Source of the DNA: SAR324 cluster bacterium
GTDB taxonomy: Bacteria > SAR324 > NAC60-12
Direction of reading: 5' to 3'
Assembly (NCBI GenBank): GCA_029245725.1
Contig: JAQWOT010000358.1
Location: forward strand, 689-64,688
DNA length: 64,000 nt
How positions within the stretch are numbered: position 1 is the first letter of the stretch; the number at the start of each line of letters is the position of its first letter. The translations under genes were made by a program, and so were the position numbers. Below, in pieces: positions 38,972-57,351 of this stretch. The notes beneath the pieces were generated by a model. It did not search any database and was not told the origin of the DNA. It saw only the letters and a list, made by a program, of their open reading frames with translations.

Positions 38972-39901
38972 CTACATGTTGACAAGTTCGCACATCTGAT
39001 CAGCTGTTTCCTTTAAAACCAGCCAATTTTCTGCATGTGCATTGTATGCAATATGATCCAAACCAATGTGCAGATAGCAAGTGTTAAGTCGTTCTTGTAG
39101 ATTTGTTGGCGCATAGCCAACTTGAATCCAGTGATTTTCCAGAGCCTTTCGAAGAAGGGGAACATCAAGATTTGTGTGCCAGGAGGCCCAGAACTCAAAC
39201 CAGGCCAAATCGTAGAGGTGGTCTCCCAAACGTCCACATCCCCAATCAAAGACTGCGTTGATGTGTTCGTCATCAACTAGGACATTACGATTCATCAAAT
39301 CACAATGCAGCAAAGAACGAGGGACATCTGTTAAGGCAAAATTCTTCAACTTATCCAACCCTCGCTCAAAAGCATCCATTCCTGAAGGAGAATTCTGTTC
39401 CAGTTTGCGACGCCAACCATGAGTGCGTTGGATCGGCTTGTCTTCAACAACAGTGAGCAGATGCTCCCTCCAAGTAGCACAATTGGCGGTGCCATCTTTG
39501 TCCCAATGCCCCACTCCAGTGGTCTCTTTGAGATCAGCAGTCCGCAAAGCTTCTAGTACATTGACCAAATCTGGAATCACGCCCTGCCAAACCTCAGGGT
39601 CCACATTCTCAAGATGAATACCATGTGCTCTGCGAGAGATAGCAAAGTAGCCATCCAGCGCCTCCCCCACCTCAAATACCTCGGGAATAGGGAGCTGTGC
39701 TGAGCTAAATCTAGCCGCCCAGCTGTCCTTTTGAAAATCTTCGATGTAATGCCCAAAGCGGATCACATATTCCCGGTCTCCAACAAGGTATCCAAAACAA
39801 CGAGACCAAGCGCCCTCCCCGATCATCGTAAGCTGTTGAGGCTCAGCTGAGAGATGACTTCGTAGAAATTGATGAGCTTGCTCGAGGGATACCGATGACA
39901 T
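38972..39901 (-). CDS. Aminoglycoside phosphotransferase family protein, APH(4)/hygromycin-kinase-like
   Basis: GEGAWSRCF, LPIPEV, AISRRAHG, LLHCDLMNRNVL, AVFDWG motifs; start taken at MSSVS. Confidence 0.85.
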   Translation of the reverse strand: MSSVSLEQAHQFLRSHLSAEPQQLTMIGEGAWSRCFGYLVGDREYVIRFGHYIEDFQKDSWAARFSSAQLPIPEVFEVGEALDGYFAISRRAHGIHLENVDPEVWQGVIPDLVNVLEALRTADLKETTGVGHWDKDGTANCATWREHLLTVVEDKPIQRTHGWRRKLEQNSPSGMDAFERGLDKLKNFALTDVPRSLLHCDLMNRNVLVDDEHINAVFDWGCGRLGDHLYDLAWFEFWASWHTNLDVPLLRKALENHWIQVGYAPTNLQERLNTCYLHIGLDHIAYNAHAENWLVLKETADQMCELVNM

Positions 39902-40593
39902 CGATCTTGAAGTGAGGGCCGTGTTCCAAAAACCTGAGAATTGAATCAATCCTTTGAAACAACGAAAGTGCTCGCTAATTGCGAGTACTGACAAGAAGTT
40001 TGTCCAGACCGATCCTTTTGATGGATGATCTGAGCAAATTAATCCAGTTCTTTGTCAGTGTCAGCAAGATGATGAGTAGGAACTAGAGAACAGGAGATGA
40101 TTTGGGATCGGTTGGTACAGCCAGGAAAAGTGACTTTAAAACCTGACTGTGCCCTGAGATGAGAGGATTGGGCTAAGACAAGACCCTCACCCGAGGTCGT
40201 TGTAGAACTATGCAAACAAAGATAAGCCTCAGCACCCAGAGAGACACGTAGCAAATTCTCTGGGCGTGAGAATCAGTAGAGAGTGAATCACTCCCCGTTT
40301 GAGCAAGATAGTCATGAAGATTTTCTCGGTTCCACTGCTTGGCTCCGAATCTTCATAATATAGGCATCCTTTCCTGAAAACTCCGGACTCTCAACCTATG
40401 GGCGGTACGTTAGTCTCTAGTTGATTATTTACCAGCAAAGTTTGAGAGCACATTGAGTAGATTTTAATTAAGTTATTGATAAATTTAATGAAAATTTAAA
40501 AGTGTGAAAAGCGTAATTCCAAAAAAATATCTTTTTTTATTTTATTGAAAAACCTATGGTGCTGATTTCAAAAGTCAACTGCTTTGATTCCTT

Positions 40594-43362
40594 TTGCTGA
40601 CCATGCTTCACAGATACTCATTCACAATTTGGATTCTGATTTTAGTCGGGAATATTCTCTCAGGTGTTTCCAGCTGGGCGAAGTCACCCAGCGAGCTCAA
40701 TGCTGGGTTTGAGTCAATCCATCTTCGCTCCGAATTGGAGTTCCTTGAAGATCCCTCAGGATCGATGTCGTTTGAGCAAGTGCTGGGTGCTGAAAATCAG
40801 CAGCGCTTTCAGCCCAACGGAGAAATGGTTTTTAATCAGGGAATTACGAACTCGGTCTATTGGTTGCGTTTCAGTGTCGCTAATACCACCGCCAATTCCA
40901 TCCCCCTAATATTCAGTATTGATAACATCTACGGATCACTTGAACTCTATGGGATAAAGCCGACTGGAGAGAGTTTCTTAGTTTTCAAGAAATCAGCCCG
41001 ACAGCTTGTCAAGGAGGGAGGAACGACCTGGGATCTGAAGAACACTTCAATATCAGCAGATGCTAATCAGCAAACAGATTACTACCTGCGTCTGGAACCC
41101 AACCTGATTCTACGAGCAGAAATTTCACTTTGGAAACCAGAGGCTCTTAGAGAGCATTTCACTGATAAATACAATCTACTGAGTGTTAGCTGGGGAGCGA
41201 TTGGTTGTAACGCATTTTTCAGTCTTTTGTTCTTCTTTTTTCTTCGCGATAGAACCTACCTATTCTACGGCCTGCATCTACTTTTTTTCACCTTCCACCG
41301 CATGCTAACTAAGGGATGGTGGATCACTGACTTTCCAAGCCTCGATTGGTTCAACTGGGTACGCATCTATGTTGTTGGATTGTCAATCATCACTGTATTA
41401 CTTTTCTTTTCAAAAGTCCTAGAGCTAAAAAAGAAACATCCAATTTTGCACAAGATCATCAGATCCGCTGTGCTCTGCATACTTGGAATCTCATTCCTAG
41501 TGGCTTGGTTCGAGCCCAATCAAGCATTTGGAGTCTTCATGATCCTCTCAGCCATTTCCACCCTATTTCTGCTGATTCCTTACAGGGCTTGGAGAACTGG
41601 AGATAAGAACGCCCTTTTCTATTCCCTGGGCTGGGGAATCCTATGCGTATCTACTTTGATAGGAACCCAAAATGCCATGGGATTTCTGGAGTTTCCCACT
41701 TCTGTCTACTTAGTGATGGAATTGGGCGCTTTTTCAGAATCCCTCCTTTTCTCAATTGCATTGGCATTTCGAGTTCCTCAGAATGTTCAGGAACGCCAGA
41801 GAGTTCAAGAACAATTGTTGAAGCAAATGCAGGCGACTGAACGCTTCAAAAATCAATTTCTGGCAAACACCTCTCATGAATTGAAAACACCTTTGCATGG
41901 TATCATGGGACTCGCAGAAAATATGTTCCTGGAAGCTCGTCAGCGAGGCATGCAGCAGATGTCTGAAACACTCCATTTGATGATCCAAAGTGGAAGGCGT
42001 TTGAATCTGCTCATCAATAATCTACTGGACCAGGCAGCACTAGTAGAACATCGATTAACACTGCATCCAGAGCTATGCTACCTACAGCCTCTTGTGCGCT
42101 CTGCGGTTGACCTGATCAACGTCCAATTTTCTACCAAAAAACTCCGCGTCGAAAATCAGGTTTCTGAGTTTGTCCTCCCAGTTCATGCGGACCCATCAAG
42201 GATCGAACAGGTTTTGCTAAACCTCCTTTACAATGCCTGTAAATTTACCTCACAAGGACGAATTCAAATTCGATCTGCAACAGATGATGAGAGTTTGCGA
42301 ACCGAGATTCATGATTCAGGACCAGGTGTTCATGATGATGATCGTAAAATGATCTTCGAAGCCTTCGAACAACAGAACTCAGCTGTGACGGAAGGCATCG
42401 GCCTAGGCCTTTCAATCTCGAAAGAAATCATTGAGGAACATGGAGGCCAAATCGGAGTAGAGTCTTCTCCTCTGGGTGGGGCGTGTTTCTGGTTCTCTCT
42501 GCCACTGGCGCAACCCACCCAAATCCCTTTGATGGAGGAGGGGACCAATGAAAAATCCAGTGATGAAATTTCTTTTCTGCCAAAAGTCACACCAAATTTA
42601 AAGACCAGTGGGAGTATTTCCATTTTGATCGTCGATGATGATCCCGTAAATCTGCACATCCTAACAGGGATGCTCACTGAGACTGACTGGACCTTTACCT
42701 GTTGTAGCTCTGGTCAGGAAGCTCTGGAGTTGATGAGTCAAACCTCAGAATTTGACTTGGTGTTACTGGACTTGATGATGGATGGAATGGACGGCATTGA
42801 GCTCTGTACAACTCTTCGCCAACGATTTGCCAAGGAGGATTTGCCGATTCTCTTCCTGACTGCACTGAGTCGGAGTGAGGAGCTTACCCAGGCTTTTGAA
42901 GCAGGTGCAAACGACTATCTGACAAAGCCAATTCAGAAAGCGGAATTGAAAGCAAGAATTTCTTCACAGCTGGAACTCGCTCAATTGCGCCATTTAAATC
43001 CACCGGCTGTTCATGGAAAGAGTAAATCCATGAGAGATCTGCTCGCCCAAACCATGCAGGTAGTAGTTCATTGCTGGGAACATTGCCAAGGAAAGGATCA
43101 AATTTCTTTGGCTCAGGAATCAAAACTTTGGGGGGCATACCTGGATAAGACTAATGGGGTCTGGCGATCACCCGGAATTAGACAATACCTTTCAGCCTCC
43201 TCCATGCCTCAAAGGCCCCGCTGGCGTAAAGTTGCTCAGACTGTTGAGTTTCTCCAAGCTCAACTTCCGAAGGATGACTCCCACCATCAAGAACTTTCAG
43301 AGTTACTTGCAGAAATCTACAAGAAGTCCCACCAGGAAGGCCCTAATTCATCCGAGACCTAA
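40594..43362 (+). CDS. Hybrid sensor histidine kinase (7TM-DISM, HisKA, HATPase, REC) with putative ChiS-family DNA-binding C-terminal domain
   Basis: Periplasmic DISM region (NSVYWLRF), 7 TM, SHELKTPL, DSGPG/GIGLGL, LLDLMM; extra ~100 aa tail W..G..LA.ES.LW..Y..YL..P..PRW. Confidence 0.9.
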   Translation: MLTMLHRYSFTIWILILVGNILSGVSSWAKSPSELNAGFESIHLRSELEFLEDPSGSMSFEQVLGAENQQRFQPNGEMVFNQGITNSVYWLRFSVANTTANSIPLIFSIDNIYGSLELYGIKPTGESFLVFKKSARQLVKEGGTTWDLKNTSISADANQQTDYYLRLEPNLILRAEISLWKPEALREHFTDKYNLLSVSWGAIGCNAFFSLLFFFFLRDRTYLFYGLHLLFFTFHRMLTKGWWITDFPSLDWFNWVRIYVVGLSIITVLLFFSKVLELKKKHPILHKIIRSAVLCILGISFLVAWFEPNQAFGVFMILSAISTLFLLIPYRAWRTGDKNALFYSLGWGILCVSTLIGTQNAMGFLEFPTSVYLVMELGAFSESLLFSIALAFRVPQNVQERQRVQEQLLKQMQATERFKNQFLANTSHELKTPLHGIMGLAENMFLEARQRGMQQMSETLHLMIQSGRRLNLLINNLLDQAALVEHRLTLHPELCYLQPLVRSAVDLINVQFSTKKLRVENQVSEFVLPVHADPSRIEQVLLNLLYNACKFTSQGRIQIRSATDDESLRTEIHDSGPGVHDDDRKMIFEAFEQQNSAVTEGIGLGLSISKEIIEEHGGQIGVESSPLGGACFWFSLPLAQPTQIPLMEEGTNEKSSDEISFLPKVTPNLKTSGSISILIVDDDPVNLHILTGMLTETDWTFTCCSSGQEALELMSQTSEFDLVLLDLMMDGMDGIELCTTLRQRFAKEDLPILFLTALSRSEELTQAFEAGANDYLTKPIQKAELKARISSQLELAQLRHLNPPAVHGKSKSMRDLLAQTMQVVVHCWEHCQGKDQISLAQESKLWGAYLDKTNGVWRSPGIRQYLSASSMPQRPRWRKVAQTVEFLQAQLPKDDSHHQELSELLAEIYKKSHQEGPNSSET

Positions 43363-43594
43363 TGTCCCCAACTCTGACTAAATTCCCACCGTTTCCTCTA
43401 TTCCTTCCCGTCTGCAAAGCAATCTTTAATCTGAATTAGTCCAATCAAGCTGATTAAATTTTCATATATATTCAATGGCTTGTTCTAAATTTACTCAAAA
43501 TGCTCTCAATCTTAGCTGGCAAAAATTTGGGGGCAAACTACTGTCTCTCCCAGCGTTTCAATCCTAATCAATTGTTCTTCCTCGCAGTCACCCC

Positions 43595-43798
43595 ATGATT
43601 GTTCAATACAAAAGAACTGACAATCAACATCAATTCAGTATCCAGGGGGAAGCAACTGAAAAGGAGGTAGAGGCAATTCTGCAACGATTTCAGGAGTTGC
43701 TTCATCCTGAACCGGGCTTACAGGTCAATCTTGTTTTGGATTGTTCAGACTATCTGGGGAGACGTTCTGAAGACTCTGCTCCTCCCGAAGGCAGCTAA
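43595..43798 (+). CDS. Hypothetical protein
   Basis: 67 aa ORF; no family recognised. Confidence 0.45.
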   Translation: MIVQYKRTDNQHQFSIQGEATEKEVEAILQRFQELLHPEPGLQVNLVLDCSDYLGRRSEDSAPPEGS

Positions 43799-44020: not shown

Positions 44021-44299
44021 ATGTCATTTTCTCAGCCTTTGAATCCAACCAAAAAATTCGCGACACATCGGATGTTTTTTCGACCTCGTGACTGGGAAGA
44101 CCTTAAAGTTCATTTGATCTTCTCGGCAGGTCGCCTTTCGCCAGAGTTGTTTGATTTGTTGCTCCGATGGCTGGGTCGACGAAAGGAAGAGCCCCAAATC
44201 TGTTTGTTGTTCTGGCTCGCCACCTACAATCCAACTTTGTTTCATTTGATCTTGGCAGTTCGTCGTTTCTTACTCAGCCCTCTGCAACTGATCAAATAG
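44021..44299 (+). CDS. Hypothetical protein
   Basis: GGAG RBS before ATG at 44021; no family recognised. Confidence 0.45.
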   Translation: MSFSQPLNPTKKFATHRMFFRPRDWEDLKVHLIFSAGRLSPELFDLLLRWLGRRKEEPQICLLFWLATYNPTLFHLILAVRRFLLSPLQLIK

Positions 44300-44632: not shown

Positions 44633-45169
44633 TTGAAAAAATGGATTGATTTTCAGTCCACTTGTTCAGGGATGATCTCTAACGATTCGTCCTTCACATC
44701 ATCCGTCCTCCAAAACTACAGTCTCCAACTTTCAGGCGGACTCCTTTCGCTAATTCCCCCCGTAAGCTCATCTCTTTCACAAATATACTAAATCCAAAGA
44801 CAAGCATTGTACTTGAACTACCGCTGGAGGATGACCACTCTTCATCCAGTCCACCTGGCTGTACCAGGGCTTTTTCTACTTTTTAAAGTATATCGGTGCT
44901 TTACTCTTCTTCACTGGGAGGAAATATTGTGATTACAATTCATTTAGATAAAATGCGTCAACTAGCTTGAATATGTATTCATCAGAAGAACTTCATATCG
45001 ACTAAAATTCTAATTTTGTTCATTCAATTTAAATACATCAATCCTCTCTATCATTTTCCTCCCCCCGCTCTCCTCTGAATTCAGGATCTCTTTTGATAAG
45101 ATATTAAGTAGACAGTCGGTGCAACAGCCACTGACGAATTAGCAATTATGAACACTTGAGGAGATTTCT

Positions 45170-45346
45170 ATGAGTGGGCTGAACAACCTCTTTTTTGGAT
45201 TCATCAAAGTCGGTATCCTCTTGGTTATCTTGTCGCTGATTGTGGCAGGAATCATGTCAGAAGGTACTGGGTTCGTGCTGGGGATTGCGTGCGCTGGCTT
45301 GGTGAGTATGGTCTTTGTGGTAGCTCTGCTGGAACAGAAGTCCTGA
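45170..45346 (+). CDS. 58-aa two-TM small protein (below ORF-track cutoff)
   Basis: GAGGAG RBS; MSGLNNLFFGFIKVGILLVILSLIVAGIMSEGTGFVLGIACAGLVSMVFVVALLEQKS*. Confidence 0.65.
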   Translation: MSGLNNLFFGFIKVGILLVILSLIVAGIMSEGTGFVLGIACAGLVSMVFVVALLEQKS

Positions 45347-46544: not shown

Positions 46545-48083
46545 TCAGGCATTCACAGTGGTCTTCAGCCCATACGTTCGCAGCCCCAGAAGACGGGCCC
46601 TACCAGCAATCGTGCTTATGGAGAGTTCGTTACTTTCTGGATTGGAGAAGATATTATTGGTCATAGTGGTCCGACCATAATCCGTAAAAATTTCAATCGA
46701 AATACTGTCCAAGAAAATCCTGACAGTAAGCTCGGATTGGCTCGCTGATTCCAGTAGGCACTTGCGCTGTAGAGCAGAGATGTTCCCCGAGCGTGTTCGA
46801 TCAAAGATCATCTCACCTTTCGCCAGGTCAAACTCCAGCTTTGTCTCCTGCTCAGCAGAGCCACGCAGGCTAAAAACAATTCGCTGCGCAGTGGTTTCTG
46901 ACAAATCAAAGCTGGCAATAATTTCACAATGCACACCGTCCCCAGCAGTGAAGGGCAAGGGTTTAGCTTCTTCGATCACACAGGGGGCATAGTATTGTTC
47001 GTGCTCCCGAAGCTTTTCCACCTCAGAGACCGGCTCACTCACAAGTTTACCATCAGGGCACAGACGGATCTGACGCGGTAGCGTAAGGCTACCATACCAA
47101 CCCAATTCACTGGTATCATATTTACCTCGACACCATGGCATAAAGGGCCATGAACCAACCCAAGCCATGATTAAATCACGGCCCCTATCATCCCGAAAAT
47201 GCTGTGGTGCATAATAGTCAAAACCCAAATCGACTGAACCCATCGTCTGCCAATGGAACTTCCCAGTTTGCTCATCAAAATCTCCTGTCAGATAAACCAC
47301 TTGTCTCTCTTGCAAGCCCATAGGCGAATACATCAGAATCCACTTACCATCTAGTGAGAAAAAATTTGGACACTCCAACATAGTGCCCAACTCTCCACCG
47401 CTCTCTACAAGATAATTGACAAATTCCCAATTCTTGAGATTTTTTGAGCGGTGCAGACAAACTTTTCCCAGGCCGTTTTTTTGGCTATTCGAAGGCTCAA
47501 TCAGATCACTCACTCCATCAGTCACCCCAGTAACCATGTACCATAAATTCCCCTGTTTCCAGACTTTGGGATCCCGGAAGTCATGGGGATTGATTTCAGG
47601 TGGAGGTTCAGCAAGTACTGGATTTTGATCTGATTTGGTAAAGTTCATACCATCTGAAGAACTGGCCATGCACTGAACCTGTCGGTTCTTAGCACAGCCC
47701 GTGTAATAGAGAATCAGTTCATCCTGATGTTCAATTGCGGATCCAGTGAAGATTCCACCACCTTCCCAACCGTCATAATCTTCACTCGGTGCAAGTGCTT
47801 CAGGCTGATGCTCCCAATGAATCAGATCAGTGCTGATGGCGTGTCCCCAGTGCATCGTACCCCACTTTCCACTGAAAGGGTGATGCTGGTAAAACAAATG
47901 AAACTTTCCCTGAAATTGAATCAATCCGTGTGGATCATTCATCCAACCCACAGGGGTTTGAAAATGATAATTTTCTCTCCATGGATGCTGCGCAATTTCA
48001 GCTTTGTGTTGAGCAACATATTCTTCAACCCGGTGAATTTTTTCTTGGTGTAACTTTGCGTTGAAGCCCATGCTATTCTCCAA
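46545..48083 (-). CDS. GH32 beta-fructofuranosidase / sucrose-6-phosphate hydrolase
   Basis: WMNDPHG, FTGSA, FRDP, ECPNF, DYYAPQ catalytic motifs plus C-terminal beta-sandwich. Confidence 0.95.
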   Translation of the reverse strand: MENSMGFNAKLHQEKIHRVEEYVAQHKAEIAQHPWRENYHFQTPVGWMNDPHGLIQFQGKFHLFYQHHPFSGKWGTMHWGHAISTDLIHWEHQPEALAPSEDYDGWEGGGIFTGSAIEHQDELILYYTGCAKNRQVQCMASSSDGMNFTKSDQNPVLAEPPPEINPHDFRDPKVWKQGNLWYMVTGVTDGVSDLIEPSNSQKNGLGKVCLHRSKNLKNWEFVNYLVESGGELGTMLECPNFFSLDGKWILMYSPMGLQERQVVYLTGDFDEQTGKFHWQTMGSVDLGFDYYAPQHFRDDRGRDLIMAWVGSWPFMPWCRGKYDTSELGWYGSLTLPRQIRLCPDGKLVSEPVSEVEKLREHEQYYAPCVIEEAKPLPFTAGDGVHCEIIASFDLSETTAQRIVFSLRGSAEQETKLEFDLAKGEMIFDRTRSGNISALQRKCLLESASQSELTVRIFLDSISIEIFTDYGRTTMTNNIFSNPESNELSISTIAGRARLLGLRTYGLKTTVNA

Positions 48084-48107
48084 AAGTGTATAAGAAGTTT
48101 TGGTGTT

Positions 48108-49176
48108 TCAATTTCTGTCCAAGAACCCTGATCGGTAATCCGACGCCATTTCTTCTTCTAAATCGTGAGATCTTGTTTTAATTTTTGGCGCCTGTCCTGC
48201 GGTATTGAACTGCTCAGAGCGAAGTTTGGCGACTTTCTCCATTACGACCATTGCAGGCTTCAAAAATTTTCGAGGGGCAAACTCAGTTTTTTCTTCAGTT
48301 GCAACTTTGTGCATTGCTCCCGTCATTGCCAAGCGGCAATCAGTATCAATGTTAATTTTTCGAACCCCATACCGAATGCCCTTTTGAATCTCTTCGACAG
48401 GAACACCCCAAGTTTGAGGCATTTTACCACCGTGGTGGTTGAAGATATCCTGAAGATCCTGTGGAACACTGGATGAGCCATGCATTACCAAGTGTAGATC
48501 TGGCATTCTTCGATTGATTTCCTTCACAATATCCATAGCCAGAATATCTCCATCAGGTTTTCTCGTGAATTTGTATGCCCCATGTGAAGTACCCATTGCA
48601 ATTGCCAGTGCATCGACCTGAGTTTGCTTGACAAAATCTTCAGCTTGCCCAGGATTTGTAAGTAGTTGGTCTCGACTGAGTTTACCCTCGGCGCCGTGAC
48701 CGTCCTCCTGTTCAGACTCACCACTTTCAAGTGATCCGAGGCAACCTAACTCTCCTTCAACAGAGACTCCAACTGAATGCGCAGTTTCAGTGACTTTTGC
48801 TGTAATGTTCAAATTGTATTCGTAGGAAGACGGAGTTTTAGCGTCTTCTTCAAGTGATCCATCCATCATTACTGATGTAAATCCATTTTGTATGGCAGAG
48901 AAACAGTTGGTCGTATTGTTACCATGGTCTTGATGTAAGCAGATTGGAGTTTTGGGGAACATCTCCTCAGCCGCTTGAATCATGTGTTGGATCATTGCAT
49001 CACTAGAATAACTGCGAGCTCCTCTTGTAACTTGCAGAATTACAGGTGCTTCCACGGACTGAGCGGCCTGCACTTATGGCAATAAGTTGCTCAATGTTGC
49101 TGATGTTAAAGGCAGGTACACCTTAACCTTCAAGCGCAGCATGATCTAACAGTTGTCTCAATGTGATGCGTGCCAT
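48108..49176 (-). pseudogene. fba: Class II fructose-bisphosphate aldolase with nonsense codon and frameshift
   Basis: MARITLRQLLDHAALEG*GVPAFN (TAA 49123-49125), frameshift near 49075, then HQDHG, SVMMDGS, GTSHGAYK, VMHGSSS, KINIDTD. Confidence 0.9.
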
Positions 49177-49215
49177 GTTGAAAAAATTGAGTTTCTGGAT
49201 TGCTAAGGAGTAGCA

Positions 49216-49256
49216 TCCCGAAAGGCGCTAACTTTAATGAAAGCAGCCTTTCAGGA
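49216..49256. terminator. Imperfect inverted repeat between the binding-protein gene and fba
   Basis: TCCCGAAAGGC...GCCTTTCAGGA, 10 of 11 pairs. Confidence 0.55.
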
Positions 49257-49293
49257 CTAGGAAGGAGATAATTACCAATGAATCAATGTAATT

Positions 49294-50355
49294 TTATTGA
49301 TTCCAGGTACTTGAGAAGTTTTCAATAAATCCGGCCAAGTCAGCGTCAGGATTATACACCCGTGAGAGATCCCGAATTTCATTAGGAGTAAGCACGCACC
49401 CGTTCAAGAACTGACGTTCATAAGCATCAACGTTGGATGCATTTACAGGAATGAGGCTGAAGTCAGGCTGGGTATCTTCAATGGGGAATCCATGCAAATA
49501 GTCATAAAGATGAATCATTGCAAAACCACCTCCCATCCAATGCCCCCCGATACTGAAAGACAACTTACCATCACGAATATTTTGCGCGACTTGCTCATCT
49601 ATATCGCACGTAATGACGTCAATATCTGTTCGCCCAGCTTGCTCAAGAGCGAATTGTGCACCAAGTCCAGCAGTTGCACCTAAAACAATCACTGCATCAA
49701 TCTCTCCCTCTCCAAAACGTGCAACGTATTGCTCCGCATACTTGATTCCAGTCTCCCGACTCAGCCGATCTCGGCCTTCCATGATCACTTCAGCATCAGG
49801 ATACTTGTCAATTACTCTTTGAGCTCCTGCCCAAATATATTGCGTTGTGATGACATCCTTCGGATTCCAAATCATGGCAATCTTTCGGTGGCCATCATCA
49901 ATCGCAGCCTGAGCCATCGCAGCACCCCAAGCATCCAGGTTGGTGCCCATCTGTCCAATCAAGAACTTGCCATTGTACTCTTTCTCATAATCGGCAACTA
50001 CCACTCTTCCGGCTGTCATGCCAGGAATACGGTTGCGTTCCAGTAATCTGGCGACTTGAGCTCCAGCAGGTGAGGTCAATGGGTTGAAAACTATTGCATC
50101 TGGTTGGCGGGCTACCAAAGATTCTGCCTGGCTTACGTGTTTACTCTCACTGTTTTCATCATCGGCAAGAATTTGCTCAATATTCAATGCCCTGGCGACA
50201 CATTCCTGAAAACGGTGGCGGTTAATCACCCAAGGGTTAGTCTGAGGCTGACCCAAATCAGCAATTACCAAATCCTTGCGAGGCGTGACTGCTTCAGCAA
50301 AAGGGATCGGAGCCAACAGCAATACACCTAGCAAGCCATGAAGAAATCGTCTCAT
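49294..50355 (-). CDS. Sugar ABC transporter periplasmic binding protein (RbsB/LacI fold)
   Basis: Signal peptide, PDAIVFNP, DVITCD, GGHW motifs. Confidence 0.88.
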   Translation of the reverse strand: MRRFLHGLLGVLLLAPIPFAEAVTPRKDLVIADLGQPQTNPWVINRHRFQECVARALNIEQILADDENSESKHVSQAESLVARQPDAIVFNPLTSPAGAQVARLLERNRIPGMTAGRVVVADYEKEYNGKFLIGQMGTNLDAWGAAMAQAAIDDGHRKIAMIWNPKDVITTQYIWAGAQRVIDKYPDAEVIMEGRDRLSRETGIKYAEQYVARFGEGEIDAVIVLGATAGLGAQFALEQAGRTDIDVITCDIDEQVAQNIRDGKLSFSIGGHWMGGGFAMIHLYDYLHGFPIEDTQPDFSLIPVNASNVDAYERQFLNGCVLTPNEIRDLSRVYNPDADLAGFIENFSSTWNQ

Positions 50356-50375
50356 GTTACCTCTTCAGAAAAAAA

Positions 50376-50396
50376 TTATTTTCGTGAATAAAATGA
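50376..50396. promoter_or_regulatory. Candidate ROK-family operator
   Basis: TTATTT-N9-AAATGA, 21-41 nt upstream of the binding-protein start codon. Confidence 0.4.
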
Positions 50397-50488
50397 CTAA
50401 ATCAAGGTCTCCACTACATCTCTTCACATAGGCCCTCCTTTACTCAGGTGTATTGAAAGACAGGGAATAAAATCCTGCCTGAACAAGA

Positions 50489-51550
50489 CTATTTGACTAC
50501 ATCGATTTGCTTTCGGTTGAGTGAAATAGCAATTGCGGTGATTAACAAAATTCCTCTGGCTATTCTGCTCCATGAAGGGGGAACCCCAGCTATTGTCAAA
50601 CCGTTTGCTACAATGGTAAGTGTCAACGCGCCTACAACAGTTTTCAAAACACTACCGTAGCCTCCTGTAAGCACTGTTCCCCCAAGTGCAACAGCCGCAA
50701 TTGCATCCAACTCAAGCATTTCACCTGCTTGAACAGTAGCTGCTCCAGAGCGTGCTAGATTGATGAAGGATGCCAGCCCAACCATAAAACCTGCGGCAGC
50801 AAAGACTTGAATCTTGAACCAATTAACTGAAATACCTGTTAATCGAAGTACTTTTTCGTTGCCACCAAGTGCTTTTAGCTGCTGACCAAAAACTGTTTTT
50901 TCATAAACAATCCAGAGCAGTACGGCAACAGCTACCGTGAAGTAAAGAATCTGTGGAAACTGACCTAGATCCAGCAGCCACTTCGCTTCGATTGAAGTGA
51001 TATTACTATTACTCATTGGCTGATCACTGACATAGATGGAGCGACCATCTGAAACAATCACCAGAACAGCTCTCACGATAATCAGCATCGCCAGTGTGGT
51101 TACGAAAGAGGAGATTTTGAAAAGTGAGAAAATCGTCCCATTGAGTACACCAATGAAAACTGCTGAACATATTCCAACCAGAAAACCCAACTCACCAAAC
51201 CAGAGCATTCCCAAGGCAGCCATGTAGGCGCTAAAACCTAAATTTGAACCAACAGAGATATCGATTGACCCTGTAGTGACAACGAGAAGCTGAGCAAAAG
51301 CCAATAGTAGTAAGACCGGTGTCTGCTGCGCAATAAACGTCCAGTTTCGGACAGACATGAATCTGTCTCCACTGATGAACCAGAACAACAGGATTACCAA
51401 AGTAATTGCGATGAATGGCACATTATCGCGAATCCGCCCAATCCAAACCCGACCCTCGGGAGAATCCCACCAAAGCATACCTAACTTGGCCGTTAACAAA
51501 TTAGCCTCATCATTTGGTCGAATCACTTCCTTATCAACGTCACTTGCCAT
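50489..51550 (-). CDS. Sugar ABC transporter permease (RbsC/FrcC-like)
   Basis: GSIDISVG, SFVTTL, GGN..GI, ELDAIAAVALGG motifs. Confidence 0.93.
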   Translation of the reverse strand: MASDVDKEVIRPNDEANLLTAKLGMLWWDSPEGRVWIGRIRDNVPFIAITLVILLFWFISGDRFMSVRNWTFIAQQTPVLLLLAFAQLLVVTTGSIDISVGSNLGFSAYMAALGMLWFGELGFLVGICSAVFIGVLNGTIFSLFKISSFVTTLAMLIIVRAVLVIVSDGRSIYVSDQPMSNSNITSIEAKWLLDLGQFPQILYFTVAVAVLLWIVYEKTVFGQQLKALGGNEKVLRLTGISVNWFKIQVFAAAGFMVGLASFINLARSGAATVQAGEMLELDAIAAVALGGTVLTGGYGSVLKTVVGALTLTIVANGLTIAGVPPSWSRIARGILLITAIAISLNRKQIDVVK

Positions 51551-51562
51551 ACAACGCTCCTT

Positions 51563-52309
51563 TCAGCCGGTCGTAATGGCTTTAACAAGCTCATCAATAT
51601 TGACTTCATTTCTCAAAAATTCCCTCGATGTGTTTCCTTGGTGGACAACGACCAGGCGATCTGCCAATCGAAAAACTTGATCCAAATTATGGCTTATCAG
51701 GATGGTAGCGGTATTCCGTTTTCGTATTTCGTTTATGACGCGCTCAACCTGTTGTGTTTCGTTTGGCCCTAACGCTGCTGTAGGCTCATCGAGGATTACA
51801 ATCTCTTTTCCCCAGGCAATAGCCCGCCCGATGGCAATGCTTTGTTGCTGACCTCCAGACATCTCTGAAATTGGGCGTTTGAGGCTCTGAACTGTTTCCA
51901 CTTTGAGGTCTGCAAGCACCTCTCTTGTCTTTGCCTCCATTTGCCTTTCATCAACAAAAATTCCAAATTTTCTTGGAATTCTGCCGAGAAAGAGATTGTA
52001 GGGAGCTGTCATGTTCGGGACGATTGCCAAATCTTGATAAACAACTTCGACACCCATCTGCCTGATAAAGCCAACACTGTGGTCTTGACGAGTAATTCGA
52101 TTTCCCCGAATGCTGATGTAACCCCGATCTGGAGCAAGAACGCCAGCAATGATTTTGATTAGAGTTGATTTGCCTGCTCCATTTGCTCCAACAATAGCGA
52201 GGACCTCTCCAGGAAAAAGTTTGAGTGAGCCTTCTCGGAGTGCTTCCACTCCACCAAAGGCTTTACTGACACTATTTACCTCTAAAATGGATTGAGAAGT
52301 ACTCTTCAT
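51563..52309 (-). CDS. Sugar ABC transporter ATP-binding protein (single domain, FrcA-like)
   Basis: GANGAGKST, VVYQDLA, MSGGQQQ, ILDEPTAALG. Confidence 0.95.
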   Translation of the reverse strand: MKSTSQSILEVNSVSKAFGGVEALREGSLKLFPGEVLAIVGANGAGKSTLIKIIAGVLAPDRGYISIRGNRITRQDHSVGFIRQMGVEVVYQDLAIVPNMTAPYNLFLGRIPRKFGIFVDERQMEAKTREVLADLKVETVQSLKRPISEMSGGQQQSIAIGRAIAWGKEIVILDEPTAALGPNETQQVERVINEIRKRNTATILISHNLDQVFRLADRLVVVHQGNTSREFLRNEVNIDELVKAITTG

Positions 52310-52310
52310 C

Positions 52311-52715
52311 AGTTAATCGTTTGAAAATTCATATGACGCATTATTTCCAGTCACTCTGAACCAGATTCCATTTTCCAGGCTAACTCAATATCTGCGCACA
52401 ATCTGTTGTTCAACACCCTCAAAACATTTGGTGTATCTGTGCGCTCATAGTGAGCTTCTACTTTGATTATTACTTACCCACTCCCATTTTTTTATTAAGC
52501 TCTCTACATCATAGGACACAGGGGAGCCCTTCAATTTTGATATTGGGGTTTCAACTCCCTGATATTCGATGAATTTTGAATTCATATAATCCATCGAAAA
52601 GTGAAAGCCATCAATCCCAACTGCTTGCATTGAAAATGCTTCCAAACATTTTACTGAGTTTCACCAGTGTTGCCGCAAAAGTTGATTTGCCATTGCCAGG
52701 TGGACCAGCTAAATT
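52311..52715 (-). pseudogene. FrcK-like P-loop kinase remnant
   Basis: AGPPGNGKSTFA, frameshift, VGIDGFH, KGSPVSYD; truncated at both ends. Confidence 0.75.
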
Positions 52716-52872
52716 TAGTTTTGCAAGTGTGTTTAAATTTCAATTATTTTATACTTTCTTTCTATTTCTCTCCATACTGGTTTATAAACAAATTCTAATT
52801 AATTACTCATAATCTTTATTTTGGAATAAAATCCATTGATTTGAAGGTCTATATTCATTTTAAATGAAAGGT

Positions 52873-53808
52873 TCAAATCATTTTAATGAGAGATTTTAAT
52901 TCTTCTTTTTCAATACTTGCTCCTAACTGCTGCAGTGACAAAGCGGCTACTTTATTTCCAAATTCTGCACACCAATCAATTGGCTTTTCTATACTCAGTC
53001 CATAAACAAACCCAGCACTGAAATTATCACCAGCACCAGTGGTATCAGACACCTCAGATGCATTAACAATTGCAGGTAATCTAAAAGATTGCTCATTATT
53101 TAAGATGAAAACTCCCTTAGAACCCAGCTTAAGAACAACGTTCTGAACCCCTTTCTCTAAAAAGAATTTTGCAAGGTCTTCGGGCTGTTCGTTAGGGTAT
53201 AGATGAGCAAGATCATCAGAACTGGGCATTAAGTAGTCTACAAAGGGAAGACAGGATTCGAATATATTCCTTTGTAAACCCAAAACACCCCAAGTTTCAT
53301 CAAGAACGGTCAAGATGCCACGCTGTTGAGCATTCTCTAACAGATTTAACAGAGGTGTTCCATCAATCCTTGGGAGATTGAATAGGTCTGGATAGACGAG
53401 AATGTCACAAGCGTACAGATCCTCCAAATCTAGATCATTTAACTTAAATTCTGAAAGGGCACCATGATATGACATGAAACTACGCTCGCCATCCTGATTA
53501 ACACCAACAATAACTGTTGATGTAGATTTTTTATCGGTTTTTCTAAGAGAGTTTCTTGTTTTTACACCGGCAACTTTCAGTTCTTCTTGAAGATAATCTC
53601 CCTGCAAATCATTACCAATCTTGCTGAACAAACGTACATTTGCTCCCATTTTTGCCAGTGAAAGTGAACAATTCGTTGCGCCACCTCCAGGAGATGATTT
53701 CAATTCATCAACAAATATATTAGTACAAACTTTTGGCTCTGGATAGCTAGCAACAGGACTCAACAAGATGTCAACTAAGCAACTGCCAATGCAATTCACT
53801 GTTTTCAT
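52873..53808 (-). CDS. PfkB family carbohydrate kinase
   Basis: PGGGATN, GNDLQG, VLKLGSKG, DTTGAGDNFSAG. Confidence 0.95.
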   Translation of the reverse strand: MKTVNCIGSCLVDILLSPVASYPEPKVCTNIFVDELKSSPGGGATNCSLSLAKMGANVRLFSKIGNDLQGDYLQEELKVAGVKTRNSLRKTDKKSTSTVIVGVNQDGERSFMSYHGALSEFKLNDLDLEDLYACDILVYPDLFNLPRIDGTPLLNLLENAQQRGILTVLDETWGVLGLQRNIFESCLPFVDYLMPSSDDLAHLYPNEQPEDLAKFFLEKGVQNVVLKLGSKGVFILNNEQSFRLPAIVNASEVSDTTGAGDNFSAGFVYGLSIEKPIDWCAEFGNKVAALSLQQLGASIEKEELKSLIKMI

Positions 53809-53853
53809 TTTAAAGTACTTCTAGGCAGTTGATTTATTCATATTTCATGTTAT

Positions 53854-55041
53854 TCAAAGTAGTTCACTTTGAATAACATGGTGAAAACTTCCACTAATAA
53901 CTAAGTCTTTCTGTGGAGCTAACTGAAATTTTATATTTTTAAATACACTTGGTAGAACATTATTTTGAACATAGCTCTTAATACTCTCCACAAAGCACTC
54001 CCCAAATCTTGCATACTCATCCCCAATAACAATCAAATCTGGATTCATCAAATTGATAGAATTTACTAGACCTTTTGCAAGATACTTAGCAACTAGTGCA
54101 ACTTCCTTTACAATCAAAGGGTGCTGCTCCCTATAAGCTACTACGACTTCCTCAAAAGAAATTGGTTTAGATGAAATTTTATACCAATGTTCTTCTAGGT
54201 TTCTAAGCAATGCTAGACTGGAACTGTAAATTTCCAGGCAACCCCGATTTCCACACTTGCAAAGTGGACCATTTAGATCAATCGAAGTATGTCCAATTTC
54301 GCCAGCTGTTCCCAAACTTCCCCTGAACACCTCCCCATTGAGAACTATTCCTGCGCCAATGCCTTGACCTGCGGACAAATACAGGGTCACTTTTGAGTTC
54401 GAATCCAATCCCTGGGAAATCCAAACGGCTAACGCAGCAGCCTTTGCATCATGTTTCGAATAGACAGGAATCTGCTCATAATGCGATCTCAACTGCTGAA
54501 TTAAATCAAACTGGTGCCAGTCTGTTGACTCCGTAATGAGTACAATTCTTTCTGAATCTTCCAGAAATGGCCCTGGCAGAGTAACTCCAATTCCCAACAA
54601 ATTTTCTTTGCACAGTTCCAAAAATGTGTTCAGCGATTCAACGATTTGCTCAAAAATGCTCTCTGCTGTGTTGACCGGTTTTACTTGGATTTCAGTCGAC
54701 TGTAGTATAGAGCCTCTTAAGTCCATCAACGCCACCCTGAAGTTGAGACGTTGAAGCCGGACCACTAAAACCCGGTGAGGATCCGCCGCTATCCTCAATC
54801 CTATAGACCGTCTACCTCTCTGATTCTCCTCCTTTTGAAGTATGCTTTCTTCGACAACACCTTCATCGACTAATTGCTGTACTACTCTCGTTACCGTGGA
54901 AGCGTCTAGTCCTGAGCTCTGAACAATTTCGGACCTAGAACACATTCGTCTTTCATAAATCAAGCGGAGAATAACTCTGCGATTGTATTCTTGAACGCTC
55001 TTAACCGTAAAACCGCGGCTCCGCATTTCATTAACAACCAT
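53854..55041 (-). CDS. ROK family transcriptional regulator (NagC/XylR-like)
   Basis: N-terminal HTH (SRSEI..GLDASTVT), GIGAGIV, AGEIGH, CKCGNRGCLE. Confidence 0.95.
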   Translation of the reverse strand: MVVNEMRSRGFTVKSVQEYNRRVILRLIYERRMCSRSEIVQSSGLDASTVTRVVQQLVDEGVVEESILQKEENQRGRRSIGLRIAADPHRVLVVRLQRLNFRVALMDLRGSILQSTEIQVKPVNTAESIFEQIVESLNTFLELCKENLLGIGVTLPGPFLEDSERIVLITESTDWHQFDLIQQLRSHYEQIPVYSKHDAKAAALAVWISQGLDSNSKVTLYLSAGQGIGAGIVLNGEVFRGSLGTAGEIGHTSIDLNGPLCKCGNRGCLEIYSSSLALLRNLEEHWYKISSKPISFEEVVVAYREQHPLIVKEVALVAKYLAKGLVNSINLMNPDLIVIGDEYARFGECFVESIKSYVQNNVLPSVFKNIKFQLAPQKDLVISGSFHHVIQSELL

Positions 55042-55355: not shown

Positions 55356-56150
55356 CTATTGATAAGTGAAACTCAATGAAGCCCAATAGCTTTTCCAAAC
55401 AGCACCGTTAGCCTGTTCTACCTCCAACATGTGCACGGCGTTCAGCAGGAAAAAGCCAGGGGCCGTCAGTGGGACCTGAGCACGTCCTTTGGCATCTGTT
55501 CTGACTGTGGTCTCTTCTGTTTCACCACCTCTATGAAAGATACGAATCTGAATGTCGGGGAGTGGTTCCCCTTGCCAGAACAACCGCACTGGCAGGCTGG
55601 TGCTCTTTGTCAAGTAAGGGTTTTCTTCTGCCAACAGTTCCAAGGGCATCCCCACCAGTAGATCCTGTCCTTCAGCAGTACCACCCACCGCCAAAGCCTT
55701 GGCACATCTCACATAGTCTTCCCGAAAACCGAACTCGGGTAGACCACGCTCCTGGTGACGTTCCAACACACCTGTCAGCCCTTCGTATTCAATAAATCGC
55801 TCAAACTGTTCCTTTGAGCGGTAACGCATATCATCTGTGCTAGAGACATAATTGATAACGTGTAATCCTGGAGTACGGACCTTCATCGCAAAAGCAGGCA
55901 TGTCGCCCTGCATCCCCTTAACAGGACGTATCCCCTCTGCATCTCGGATTTGAAACTCCTCAAACCAGGATTCAATATAAGGCTGTTGATTGCCCTTGAG
56001 ATGCTGACCAACTCTTAGTTTAATCTTCAGGGTGTCACCCACGGATACCAATGGATTTTCTGGTTCCATCCAAAACTCATGAGCTTGGAGGGGATTGGAC
56101 ACTACCAAGGCTGCGAATAAGCCCAAGAACACTCGTTGGAGAATTTTCAT
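55356..56150 (-). CDS. DUF4198 periplasmic protein (metal-uptake associated)
   Basis: Signal peptide then AHEFWMEP, YVRCAKAL, GMPLEL, WKSYWASL; start taken at MKILQR. Confidence 0.85.
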   Translation of the reverse strand: MKILQRVFLGLFAALVVSNPLQAHEFWMEPENPLVSVGDTLKIKLRVGQHLKGNQQPYIESWFEEFQIRDAEGIRPVKGMQGDMPAFAMKVRTPGLHVINYVSSTDDMRYRSKEQFERFIEYEGLTGVLERHQERGLPEFGFREDYVRCAKALAVGGTAEGQDLLVGMPLELLAEENPYLTKSTSLPVRLFWQGEPLPDIQIRIFHRGGETEETTVRTDAKGRAQVPLTAPGFFLLNAVHMLEVEQANGAVWKSYWASLSFTYQ

Positions 56151-56238
56151 GAAATTCCTCTGTTTTTCAGATGGACTTAAAAATGATTGGGGATTTGGAG
56201 AGAGCCCTTGGCGGATAAGGCAAGTATTCCACTTCCTA

Positions 56239-57351
56239 ATGGTCACAGCTTGCTTGGCGTTATTCCCTAGCCTACTGATGGCCCATGAAATTCGCCCAGC
56301 AATCGCGACCTTTGCAATGCAACCCAACGGCGACTACTCCATCACGATCAGTCTGAACTTGGAAGCGATTCTTTCTGGCATCGGTGCCGAACATGAAGAC
56401 ACAGATGACTCCCCAAATGCGGAGCGCTACAACAACCTACGAGCACTGCCTCCGAATGACTTGCGTTCAGCATTTCAACCCTTTGAAACAGAGTTCCTTG
56501 AGGGAGTAACCCTGCGTTTCGGTGATGACATTGCGGAGAGCCCACAGCTTGGACAACTCACAATTCCAGAAATTGGAGATTTGGAGTTAGCCCGGATTTC
56601 TGAAGTAGTCTTGACCGGAGTAGTGCCTTACGGTGCGGAGAGCTTTGTTTGGCAATGGAAAGAAGCCTTCGGATCAAGTGTTATTCGGGTATTACCGCAA
56701 GGTGAGGGGGACGGGGTCTCTTTCTGGCTGCAAAATGGAGATCCAAGTGAGCCGATCTCGATCGCAGGAATTGACCAGCGGACCCGCTGGGAGCAATTTC
56801 TGGATTACATCATTATTGGCTTTGAGCATATTGTCCCCAAAGGTTTGGATCATATCCTATTTGTGATTGGCATCTTTCTGCTTAGTACCCACTGGAAGCC
56901 CCTACTGACCCAGGTCACTGCATTTACGATCGCCCACTCCATCACACTGGGACTGAGCATTTATGGGATTGTCCAGTTGCCATCAAACATTGTAGAGCCA
57001 TTGATTGCCGCTTCCATTGTTTATGTGGGCATCGAAAATCTCTTCACACAGAAATTACAAAAGTGGCGAGCTGCCGTTGTCTTTACCTTTGGATTGCTCC
57101 ACGGCTTGGGCTTTGCGAGTGTTCTCTTTGAAATCGGCCTCCCTCGCGATGCATTTCTGGAGGGCCTACTCGCTTTCAACATAGGTGTAGAATTGGGACA
57201 GCTTGCAGTGATCGCGGTAGCTTTTGTTCTCATTGGCTTCTGGGGCAGAAACAGAGAGTGGTATCGGCCCTGGGTAATTGTGCCTGGATCCCTGGCGGTA
57301 TCAGTGGTTGGTGGTTGGTGGTTTCTGGAGCGTACAGTACTGGCAGGTTGA
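56239..57351 (+). CDS. HupE/UreJ family membrane protein
   Basis: AHEIRP, GFEHI..GLDHILF, FTIAHSITL, FGLLHGLGFA, FNIGVELGQ. Confidence 0.9.
   Translation: MVTACLALFPSLLMAHEIRPAIATFAMQPNGDYSITISLNLEAILSGIGAEHEDTDDSPNAERYNNLRALPPNDLRSAFQPFETEFLEGVTLRFGDDIAESPQLGQLTIPEIGDLELARISEVVLTGVVPYGAESFVWQWKEAFGSSVIRVLPQGEGDGVSFWLQNGDPSEPISIAGIDQRTRWEQFLDYIIIGFEHIVPKGLDHILFVIGIFLLSTHWKPLLTQVTAFTIAHSITLGLSIYGIVQLPSNIVEPLIAASIVYVGIENLFTQKLQKWRAAVVFTFGLLHGLGFASVLFEIGLPRDAFLEGLLAFNIGVELGQLAVIAVAFVLIGFWGRNREWYRPWVIVPGSLAVSVVGGWWFLERTVLAG

Follow-up and report, generated by a model that had tools for sequence, protein, structure and literature searches.

The subject of this analysis is a hybrid sensor kinase encoded at positions 40594–43362 of a 64,000-nt stretch of DNA, referred to here as the window, from SAR324 cluster bacterium (GCA_029245725.1, contig JAQWOT010000358.1, positions 689–64,688 of the forward strand). 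The C-terminal tail of the kinase is almost certainly a ChiS-family domain, as judged from sequence matching and a predicted fold, and very probably binds DNA. The protein probably acts as a one-component, phosphorylation-gated activator of the small-gene cluster that adjoins it. A wider proposal is put forward more tentatively, namely that SAR324 bacteria may harbor an expanded family of 7TMR-DISM kinases with ChiS-type DNA-binding domains (at least eight paralogs in one metagenome-assembled genome, or MAG) which would act at private tandem-repeat operator pairs on bent AT-rich DNA, most of them with a dedicated ~65-aa partner of an undescribed family. In the window lineage the kinase would couple an extracellular cue to a SutA-like factor.

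Domain organization of the kinase

The kinase gene was delineated from its open reading frame (ORF) and a domain scan, and comprises the following elements:

40594..43362, + strand: hybrid sensor kinase gene with a C-terminal domain assigned to the ChiS DNA-binding family
40732..41136, + strand: 7TMR-DISMED2 (PF07696) extracytoplasmic sensor, residues 47–181 (E = 2.8e-18; 66.6 bits against a cut-off of 22)
41179..41766, + strand: 7TMR-DISM_7TM (PF07695) seven-helix membrane module, residues 196–391 (E = 2.3e-26; 93.5 bits against a cut-off of 29)
41848..42510, + strand: histidine kinase core, with HisKA at residues 419–481 and HATPase_c at 533–639 (Pfam)
42622..42960, + strand: Response_reg receiver, residues 677–789 (Pfam)
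43009..43335, + strand: predicted ChiS-family helix-sheet-helix DNA-binding domain, residues ~806–914 (phmmer, AlphaFold2, Foldseek)

The ORF extends for 922 codons from a TTG at 40594. The start of orthologs of 918–919 aa corresponds to the ATG at 40603, and the likely product of the gene therefore is a protein of 919 aa that begins at that ATG. The first five domains were assigned with Pfam, and all exceeded the gathering score. A signal or anchor segment at the N terminus precedes 7TMR-DISMED2, and the succession of this domain and the seven-helix module is that of a 7TMR-DISM receptor. The H-box histidine, the N, G1, and G2 boxes, and the DD...D...K signature of the receiver are those of a hybrid histidine kinase. 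The phosphorylated histidine is H428 in TSHELKTPLH and is part of an HExxT phosphatase motif with T432, and the receiver includes the phospho-acceptor D726 in LVLLDLMMDG, an acidic pocket formed by D681/D682, and K778. In an alignment of 18 homologs of the same architecture that are 29–93% identical, H428, T432, N543/N547, D574/G576/G578, G601–G605, D681/D682, D726, and K778 are invariant. As the catalytic residues are fully retained, the kinase and receiver of the window protein both look functional. A preliminary description of this DNA had proposed a complete chain of sensor, histidine kinase, and receiver, which is borne out by the five Pfam domains and by the invariance of H428 and D726. 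The whole kinase displayed only generic similarity to hybrid kinases in NCBIfam, with scores far below every equivalog cut-off, and a sequence search with the periplasmic domain retrieved no relative of solved structure.

The C-terminal tail as a ChiS-type DNA-binding domain

The receiver is followed by a tail of ~120 residues (~803–922; bases ~43000–43359). The DNA-binding domain (DBD) identified in it is located after the receiver at the extreme C terminus of the sensory protein (~806–914 of 922) and is separated from the receiver by a linker of only ~15 residues. The isolated tail had no match in Pfam or NCBIfam. In a phmmer comparison with all chains in the PDB, residues 17–97 of the tail matched 7kpo_A, the DBD of Vibrio cholerae ChiS, with E = 1.3e-10, and the second-best match already had E > 1. 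The 7KPO domain is sufficient for DNA binding and is described as a helix-sheet-helix version of a helix-turn-helix fold (PMC8092284). An AlphaFold2 model of the tail, derived with 11 family tails, had a predicted local distance difference test score (pLDDT) of 87 and a predicted template modeling score (pTM) of 0.79, and consists of two helices, a β-hairpin, and two further helices (H11–30, H34–41, E47–49, E54–56, H75–88). A trihelical bundle with a β-hairpin between H2 and H3, which is the helix-sheet-helix arrangement, is present in this predicted model. In a Foldseek search of the PDB, 7KPO was the sole significant match to the model (E = 5e-7, TM-scores of 0.74/0.82, root-mean-square deviation of 2.7 Å, 105 columns). 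The preliminary description had quoted a ~100-aa tail after the receiver, had likened it to the ChiS DBD, and had set lack of profile or structural similarity to that domain as one outcome that would overturn the idea. The tail is located as described, and the phmmer and Foldseek matches uphold the resemblance.

Few parts of the family are as well conserved as the tail: W828, A840, S843, W846, G847, Y849, W857, Y865, P872, and PRWRKV stand out in the 18 homologs, and the last of these motifs, at residues 875–880, is invariant. DNA binding by ChiS requires five basic residues, R1068, R1074, K1078, R1090, and R1092 (PMC8092284). The equivalents of R1090 and R1092 are invariant in the family within the PRWR sequence, and R1068 is represented by a conserved lysine. 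The position of K1078 is occupied by glutamine in the window protein with arginine at −1, and R1074 aligns with proline; the hairpin is 2 aa longer there and has an arginine two positions before.

Orphan status of the kinase

The 77-kb contig (C141) bears no receiver domain other than that of the kinase itself, in keeping with the statement in the preliminary description that no partner response regulator is nearby. The genome encodes four histidine phosphotransfer (Hpt) domains, three in ORFs of 680–754 aa, which from their size alone we take to be CheA-like, and one in a 943-aa hybrid. No stand-alone Hpt protein was found in the genome (4.4 Mb, 407 contigs, ~99% complete), an absence that is not absolute given this coverage. 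Within this scope of contig and genome, the kinase is an orphan with neither a cognate regulator nor an Hpt. ChiS likewise functions with no cognate regulator, and promoter activation is inhibited when its receiver is phosphorylated. The lack of further receivers on the contig and of a stand-alone Hpt thus agrees with the ChiS precedent. The core of the preliminary description, a membrane-anchored one-component regulator with a ChiS-type tail, is supported both by this orphan status and by the sequence and fold match of the tail.

Distribution of the family and its prior cataloging

Relatives of the tail in species genomes belong to SAR324 cluster bacteria and to MAGs designated ‘Deltaproteobacteria’. 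Of 8 genomes in the same genus, 6–7 contained full-length homologs, which were also detected in three further genera of the family; the 16 genomes from the sister family all lacked them. One MAG (G009, with loci L004, L005, L011, L041, L045, and L046) has at least eight full-length kinase paralogs, in some of which PRWR has diverged, for example to PKWH or PRWG.

Interrogation of NCBI nr with a hidden Markov model (HMM) of the ChiS DBD previously identified 587 non-ChiS proteins with architectures that include 7TMR-DISM (Klancher et al., 2021; PMC8092284). Proteins from SAR324 and Deltaproteobacteria MAGs, such as MAA67353.1, are among the unassigned hits in Data Set S1 of that study (PMC8092284). 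As MAA67353.1 falls in the cluster, of at least 90% identity, of P0002, an ortholog that is 93% identical to the window protein, proteins of this type were already cataloged. The window protein is a further member of a published type and not a new kind, and the novelty implied in the preliminary description was overstated in view of the architecture and of MAA67353.1 having appeared in Klancher et al. (2021; PMC8092284). Its placement of the protein in a non-Vibrio organism with a different input module is accurate, the host being SAR324 and the sensor unlike that of ChiS. A literature search uncovered no publication on targets of 7TMR-DISM/ChiS-DBD proteins. NCBI records label these SAR324 proteins merely ‘response regulator’ because neither Pfam nor NCBIfam models the ChiS-type domain.

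A conserved small-gene cluster adjoins the kinase gene

Three genes in the same orientation follow the kinase gene:

43595..43798, + strand: conserved gene for a 67-aa putative partner or target with no family match, which co-occurs with kinase homologs (motifs Y5, G18, L..P..G, and LDC[ST])
44021..44299, + strand: conserved 92-aa gene with no family match and an AGGAGA ribosome-binding site, in the same order in L017
44381..44632, + strand: SutA-like gene, third in the cluster, with RNA-polymerase-binding domain PF20661 (40.2 bits against a cut-off of 29.3)

A gene of ~65 codons is situated 3′ of the kinase gene in all orthologs and accompanies kinase homologs down to ~35% identity. It is associated with nine diverged lineages, being located downstream in L017, L004, L005, L012, L016, L036–39, and L041, and divergently in L035. 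The 67-aa gene is under purifying selection with pN/pS of ~0.25. The family is tiny, with ~18 representatives of 58–96 aa among 1.84 billion proteins. The small protein matched no Pfam family, no PDB sequence, and no fold significantly; its AlphaFold2 model had a pLDDT of 70, and comparisons with STAS-fold chains gave E-values of only 0.25–0.5, which are non-significant and constitute a lead rather than a finding. In the L017 homolog locus, the small gene, a gene for a ~100-aa protein, and a gene for a SutA-like protein are arranged in the same order as in the window.

Candidate operator and promoter upstream of the small genes

The intergenic region between the kinase gene and the 67-aa gene includes two candidate regulatory features:

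43480..43512, + strand: candidate operator composed of three tandem 11-bp units, TTGTTCTAAAT, TTACTCAAAAT, and GCTCTCAATCT (conservation and by-eye alignment)
43516..43544, + strand: putative weak σ70-type promoter with −35 CTGGCA (43516–43521), 17-bp spacer, and −10 TACTGT (43539–43544), assigned by eye

The block at 43480–43512 is unique in the 4.4-Mb genome and is the best-conserved intergenic block among the orthologs compared (80–93% identity). It is 80% identical in L003, against 43% for the 5′ part of the region, and 93% identical in L008, against 73–78% elsewhere. An alignment made by eye also matches it to the repeat nearest the promoter in L017 and extends over the CTGGCA that follows. 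A two-copy operator in the intergenic region of the window was considered and dropped (p = 0.28). As neither a pair nor a periodicity is significant, 43480–43512 is retained as a candidate on account of its conservation and the by-eye alignment with L017. The candidate operator abuts the putative weak −35/−10 elements, the geometry of which recurs with TACTGT in L003, TAATGT in L008, and CTGGCA-17-TAAGGT in L017. The sequence at 43516–43544 may be the promoter of the small-gene cluster, with transcription predicted to begin close to 43552. A σ54-type reading of CTGGCA-N-TTGG was rejected for lack of conservation of its −12 element in L003.

Repeat pairs at the loci of diverged homologs

Pairs of direct repeats of 14–28 bp, positioned 46–69 bp apart, adjoin the kinase gene in 11 diverged loci (L017, L004, L012, L016, L005, L018, L035, L036, L041, L047, and L048) and exceed in length the repeats of almost all shuffled sequences (p ≤ 0.015). 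In most of these loci the pair is between the kinase and small genes; in L018 and L005 a different downstream gene follows it, and no small gene was detected in L047 and L048. Each repeat copy consists of two half-sites 9–11 bp apart, for example CGCTCTAAT-CGCTCT and CACTCCAAAAC-CACTCC. The spacers between repeats are 71–88% AT compared with 41–58% for the entire loci (eight pairs in seven loci). ChiS requires two phased sites at Pchb, to which two dimers presumably bind. It favors DNA that is bent (PMC8092284). The repeat pairs and AT-rich spacers of the homologs thus mirror the ChiS arrangement at Pchb.

The repeats vary with the protein. The core C[GA]CTC[TC]AA...GC is common to loci with similar residues in the hairpin and H3, and the repeats are unrelated where those residues differ. 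L012 and L018 have near-identical DBDs and near-identical repeats, and the repeats in L018 precede a Big_5/FG-GAP surface-protein gene. In L035, the small gene is inverted and the repeats are inverted along with it. A second repeat pair is present after the small gene in L012.

Very large Big_5/Big_13/FG-GAP surface-protein genes come after the kinase gene and repeat pair in L004 (13625–22781) and L018 (3877–6987), which indicates that the outputs of the family differ between lineages. In L036, a further tandem site, TAACTCCAAAATAACTCCTAAAT, occurs at 2420–2450, ~100 bp upstream of the CTGGCCA repeat pair, and the promoter region at this locus may carry two kinds of site.

Proposed mode of action

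The extracytoplasmic 7TMR-DISMED2 domain and the seven-helix module would sense a ligand, possibly a carbohydrate or a surface-derived compound, and ligand sensing would set the balance of kinase and phosphatase activities in the HisKA/HATPase core (H428, HExxT). This balance would determine whether D726 in the protein's own receiver is phosphorylated, and the receiver would gate the helix-sheet-helix DBD ~15 residues further on. By analogy with ChiS, the unphosphorylated protein may be the DNA-binding and activating form. A dimer would bind the tandem direct-repeat site at 43480–43512 that abuts the weak −35/−10 elements, and the protein, while held in the membrane, would activate the 67-aa gene, with the 92-aa and SutA-like genes as probable further targets. 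Both the ligand and the sign of regulation are inferred, as are DNA binding and the assignment of the operator and promoter in the window. That the adjacent promoter is the target of the kinase is favored somewhat on balance, with less assurance than the DNA-binding function of the tail.

Several observations weigh against this proposal. At the level of the protein, ChiS R1074 and K1078 are not strictly conserved in the family and, to our knowledge, DNA-binding experiments on the ChiS DBD family cover ChiS alone. At the level of the operator, the window lineage has one site and no repeat pair: a two-copy repeat is not significant in its intergenic region (p = 0.28), nor is the 11-bp periodicity of 43480–43512 by itself (p = 0.1–0.29), and, in the comparison with L003, conservation of the 3′ part of the region nearly equals that of the operator block. 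A scan for consensus promoters and terminators gave nothing above shuffled background and did not list the promoter at 43516–43544, the 67-aa gene has no obvious Shine-Dalgarno sequence, and the significance of the repeats in the homolog loci derives from mononucleotide shuffles. Furthermore, the small, 92-aa, and SutA-like gene cluster in L017 adjoins the 35%-identical paralog P0014 and not the 55%-identical P0009, which is followed by a tRNA-like sequence as read by eye. Both the small gene and the repeats are lacking in L019/L042, L014/L049, L045, and L046.

Alternative explanations

An unlikely alternative is that the kinase participates in a conventional relay of LadS/RetS type in which D726 donates phosphate to an Hpt in a different hybrid kinase, for onward transfer to a separate regulator, the tail serving for dimerization or protein contacts. 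The architecture of the N terminus and of the kinase-receiver region does match Pseudomonas LadS/RetS, partly on general knowledge, and the 943-aa hybrid ORF on C139, which has two receivers and an Hpt, could accept phosphate from the kinase. Moreover, two of the five DNA-contact residues of ChiS are not strictly conserved in the tail, and a receiver-only gene is downstream of the kinase in the relative L003. However, the tail is a confident homolog, in both sequence and fold, of a domain that binds DNA alone (PMC8092284) and is under strong constraint that extends to PRWRKV. The absence of a stand-alone Hpt from the genome and of a further receiver from the contig does not fit with a relay, and paralog-specific repeat pairs adjoin the kinase genes. 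Slightly more probable, although still improbable, is that the tail binds DNA but that the protein is a repressor or autoregulator, or tethers the locus for another factor, with the small protein being a signaling partner instead of a product of regulation. At PtfoR, the main role of ChiS is to bring the promoter to the membrane. The small protein always adjoins the kinase and has a faint likeness, with non-significant scores, to half of a STAS-type anti-sigma antagonist. The second repeat pair after the small gene in L012 is compatible with this alternative, as is the variation in output among lineages, the repeats in L018 and L004 preceding or being followed by Big_5/FG-GAP genes. In contrast, the proximal repeat is directly upstream of a weak −35 element in each locus that was inspected, which is the usual position for an activator, and the orientation of the repeats in L035 follows that of the inverted small gene.

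The remaining alternative, raised in the preliminary description, is that the kinase controls the sugar locus at 46545–55041 (46.5–55 kb) in response to a carbohydrate sensed by DISMED2. This fructoside/sugar locus, which includes GH32, aldolase, ABC transporter, PfkB, and ROK genes, is 3 kb from the kinase gene in the window strain, and DISMED2 domains are predicted carbohydrate binders. Its genes are all on the strand opposite to the kinase gene. The relation also fails across relatives, a comparison that the preliminary description had itself suggested: the kinase and small gene are conserved together, but the sugar locus has no synteny with them. In L008/L009, in which the kinase is 85–86% identical, the kinase gene, the small genes, and a pentapeptide-repeat gene are followed directly by the ortholog of 55356–56327; only GH32 is left in L007, and the locus is kept in L003, L006, and G007. 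The sugar locus therefore is an accessory island and not a conserved neighbor, and it was rejected as the primary target of the kinase. One further feature bears on this question:

54648..54676, + strand: second genome-wide match to the operator core, GCTCAAAAATGCTCTC (54648–54663) followed by TTGACC, antisense within the ROK gene (53854–55041, − strand)

Apart from the main site, the operator core has no other match in the 4.4-Mb genome. The distance to TTGACC resembles that at the main site, and G007 also carries the match. The core pattern was defined post hoc after the match had been seen, and the match may be due to chance; as it is also intragenic and antisense, it carries little weight, and, coding identity being 92%, its retention in G007 conveys no information. 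Control of the sugar locus is therefore considered very unlikely, and less probable than either of the other alternatives.

Other observations in the window and genome

An APH-family phosphotransferase gene (38972–39994, − strand; Pfam APH, E = 4e-17) is upstream of and divergent from the kinase gene and is kept in relatives. Between the SutA-like gene and a 58-aa gene, L003 has a receiver-only gene (141 aa, with EN in place of the DD acidic pocket) and an EamA transporter gene (L003:14026–15500). The corresponding interval of the window (44633–45170) is without both genes, and 44679–44747 matches the final 23 residues of the L003 receiver protein with 48% identity. This remnant suggests that a deletion occurred in the window lineage. 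The 58-aa gene (45170–45346, + strand) encodes a very hydrophobic peptide that is 76–98% identical in the relatives compared and has no assigned family.

The same genome encodes a second protein with a ChiS-family DBD (L002; C135:10822–13890, − strand). This protein of 1021 aa begins with a membrane region of several helices, after which come HisKA, HATPase, receiver, PAS, and DBD regions, and its tail matches 7kpo_A with E = 6.6e-13, which is better than the match of the tail of the window protein. Receiver-only ORFs (C135:14459–14749 and 15131–15457) are just upstream of this gene.

Significance and comparison with known systems

ChiS so far is the only studied member of its DBD family. If correct, the proposal provides the first predicted recognition sequences and regulons for a ChiS-family DBD outside ChiS, and covariation of the hairpin and H3 residues with the operators could define a recognition code. 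The analysis confirms a second input architecture for the ChiS-type DBD in an ocean lineage that is abundant and uncultivated, and yields tail–operator pairs that can be synthesized, one from the window and about ten from paralogs, so that DNA reading by the helix-sheet-helix fold, the generality of the arrangement of two dimers on bent DNA, and what 7TMR-DISM sensors control are now testable. New here are the conserved small partner gene and the paralog-specific repeat pairs from which operators are predicted; these extend published work without introducing a new principle.

The likeness to OmpR and PhoB is functional only. In those proteins a receiver gates a DBD that acts on tandem direct repeats approximately one helical turn apart by the −35 element, but they are soluble, have an unrelated DNA-binding fold, and receive phosphate from a separate kinase. 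ToxR, TcpP, CadC, and TfoS bind promoters while anchored in the membrane, as is proposed for the window kinase, but do so with winged-helix domains of OmpR type or with AraC-type DBDs, and have neither a kinase nor a receiver. Pseudomonas aeruginosa LadS and RetS resemble the window kinase by layout, with the same order of 7TMR-DISMED2, seven-helix module, kinase, and receiver. They have no DNA-binding tail and act via GacS and its Hpt and not on DNA, in contrast to the window kinase with its predicted tail of DNA-binding type. The 7TMR-DISM plus ChiS-DBD class of Klancher et al. (2021; Fig. 5A and Data Set S1) is the same protein family as the window kinase but was cataloged by HMM only, without targets, operators, a partner gene, or paralog expansion.

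ChiS and the window kinase differ in several respects. The sensor is a periplasmic domain in ChiS on which the chitin-binding protein docks, but 7TMR-DISMED2 and seven helices in the window kinase; the linker between receiver and DBD is ~170 residues in the former and ~15 in the latter; and the DBDs are ~25–30% identical, R1074 and K1078 not being strictly kept. No chb or cbp genes accompany the window kinase, which belongs to another phylum, SAR324, and would have other targets. With no HAMP domain in the Pfam scan and no chitin genes such as a linked cbp/chb operon among its neighbors, it does not qualify as an ortholog of the chitin sensor. Nevertheless, both proteins are membrane-bound, with HisKA bearing HExxT, HATPase, receiver, and a strictly C-terminal helix-sheet-helix DBD with PRWR, and both are without a cognate response regulator. 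Moreover, ChiS acts at two sites upstream of −35 on bent DNA, and the homolog loci described here display repeat pairs with AT-rich spacers in the eight pairs measured.

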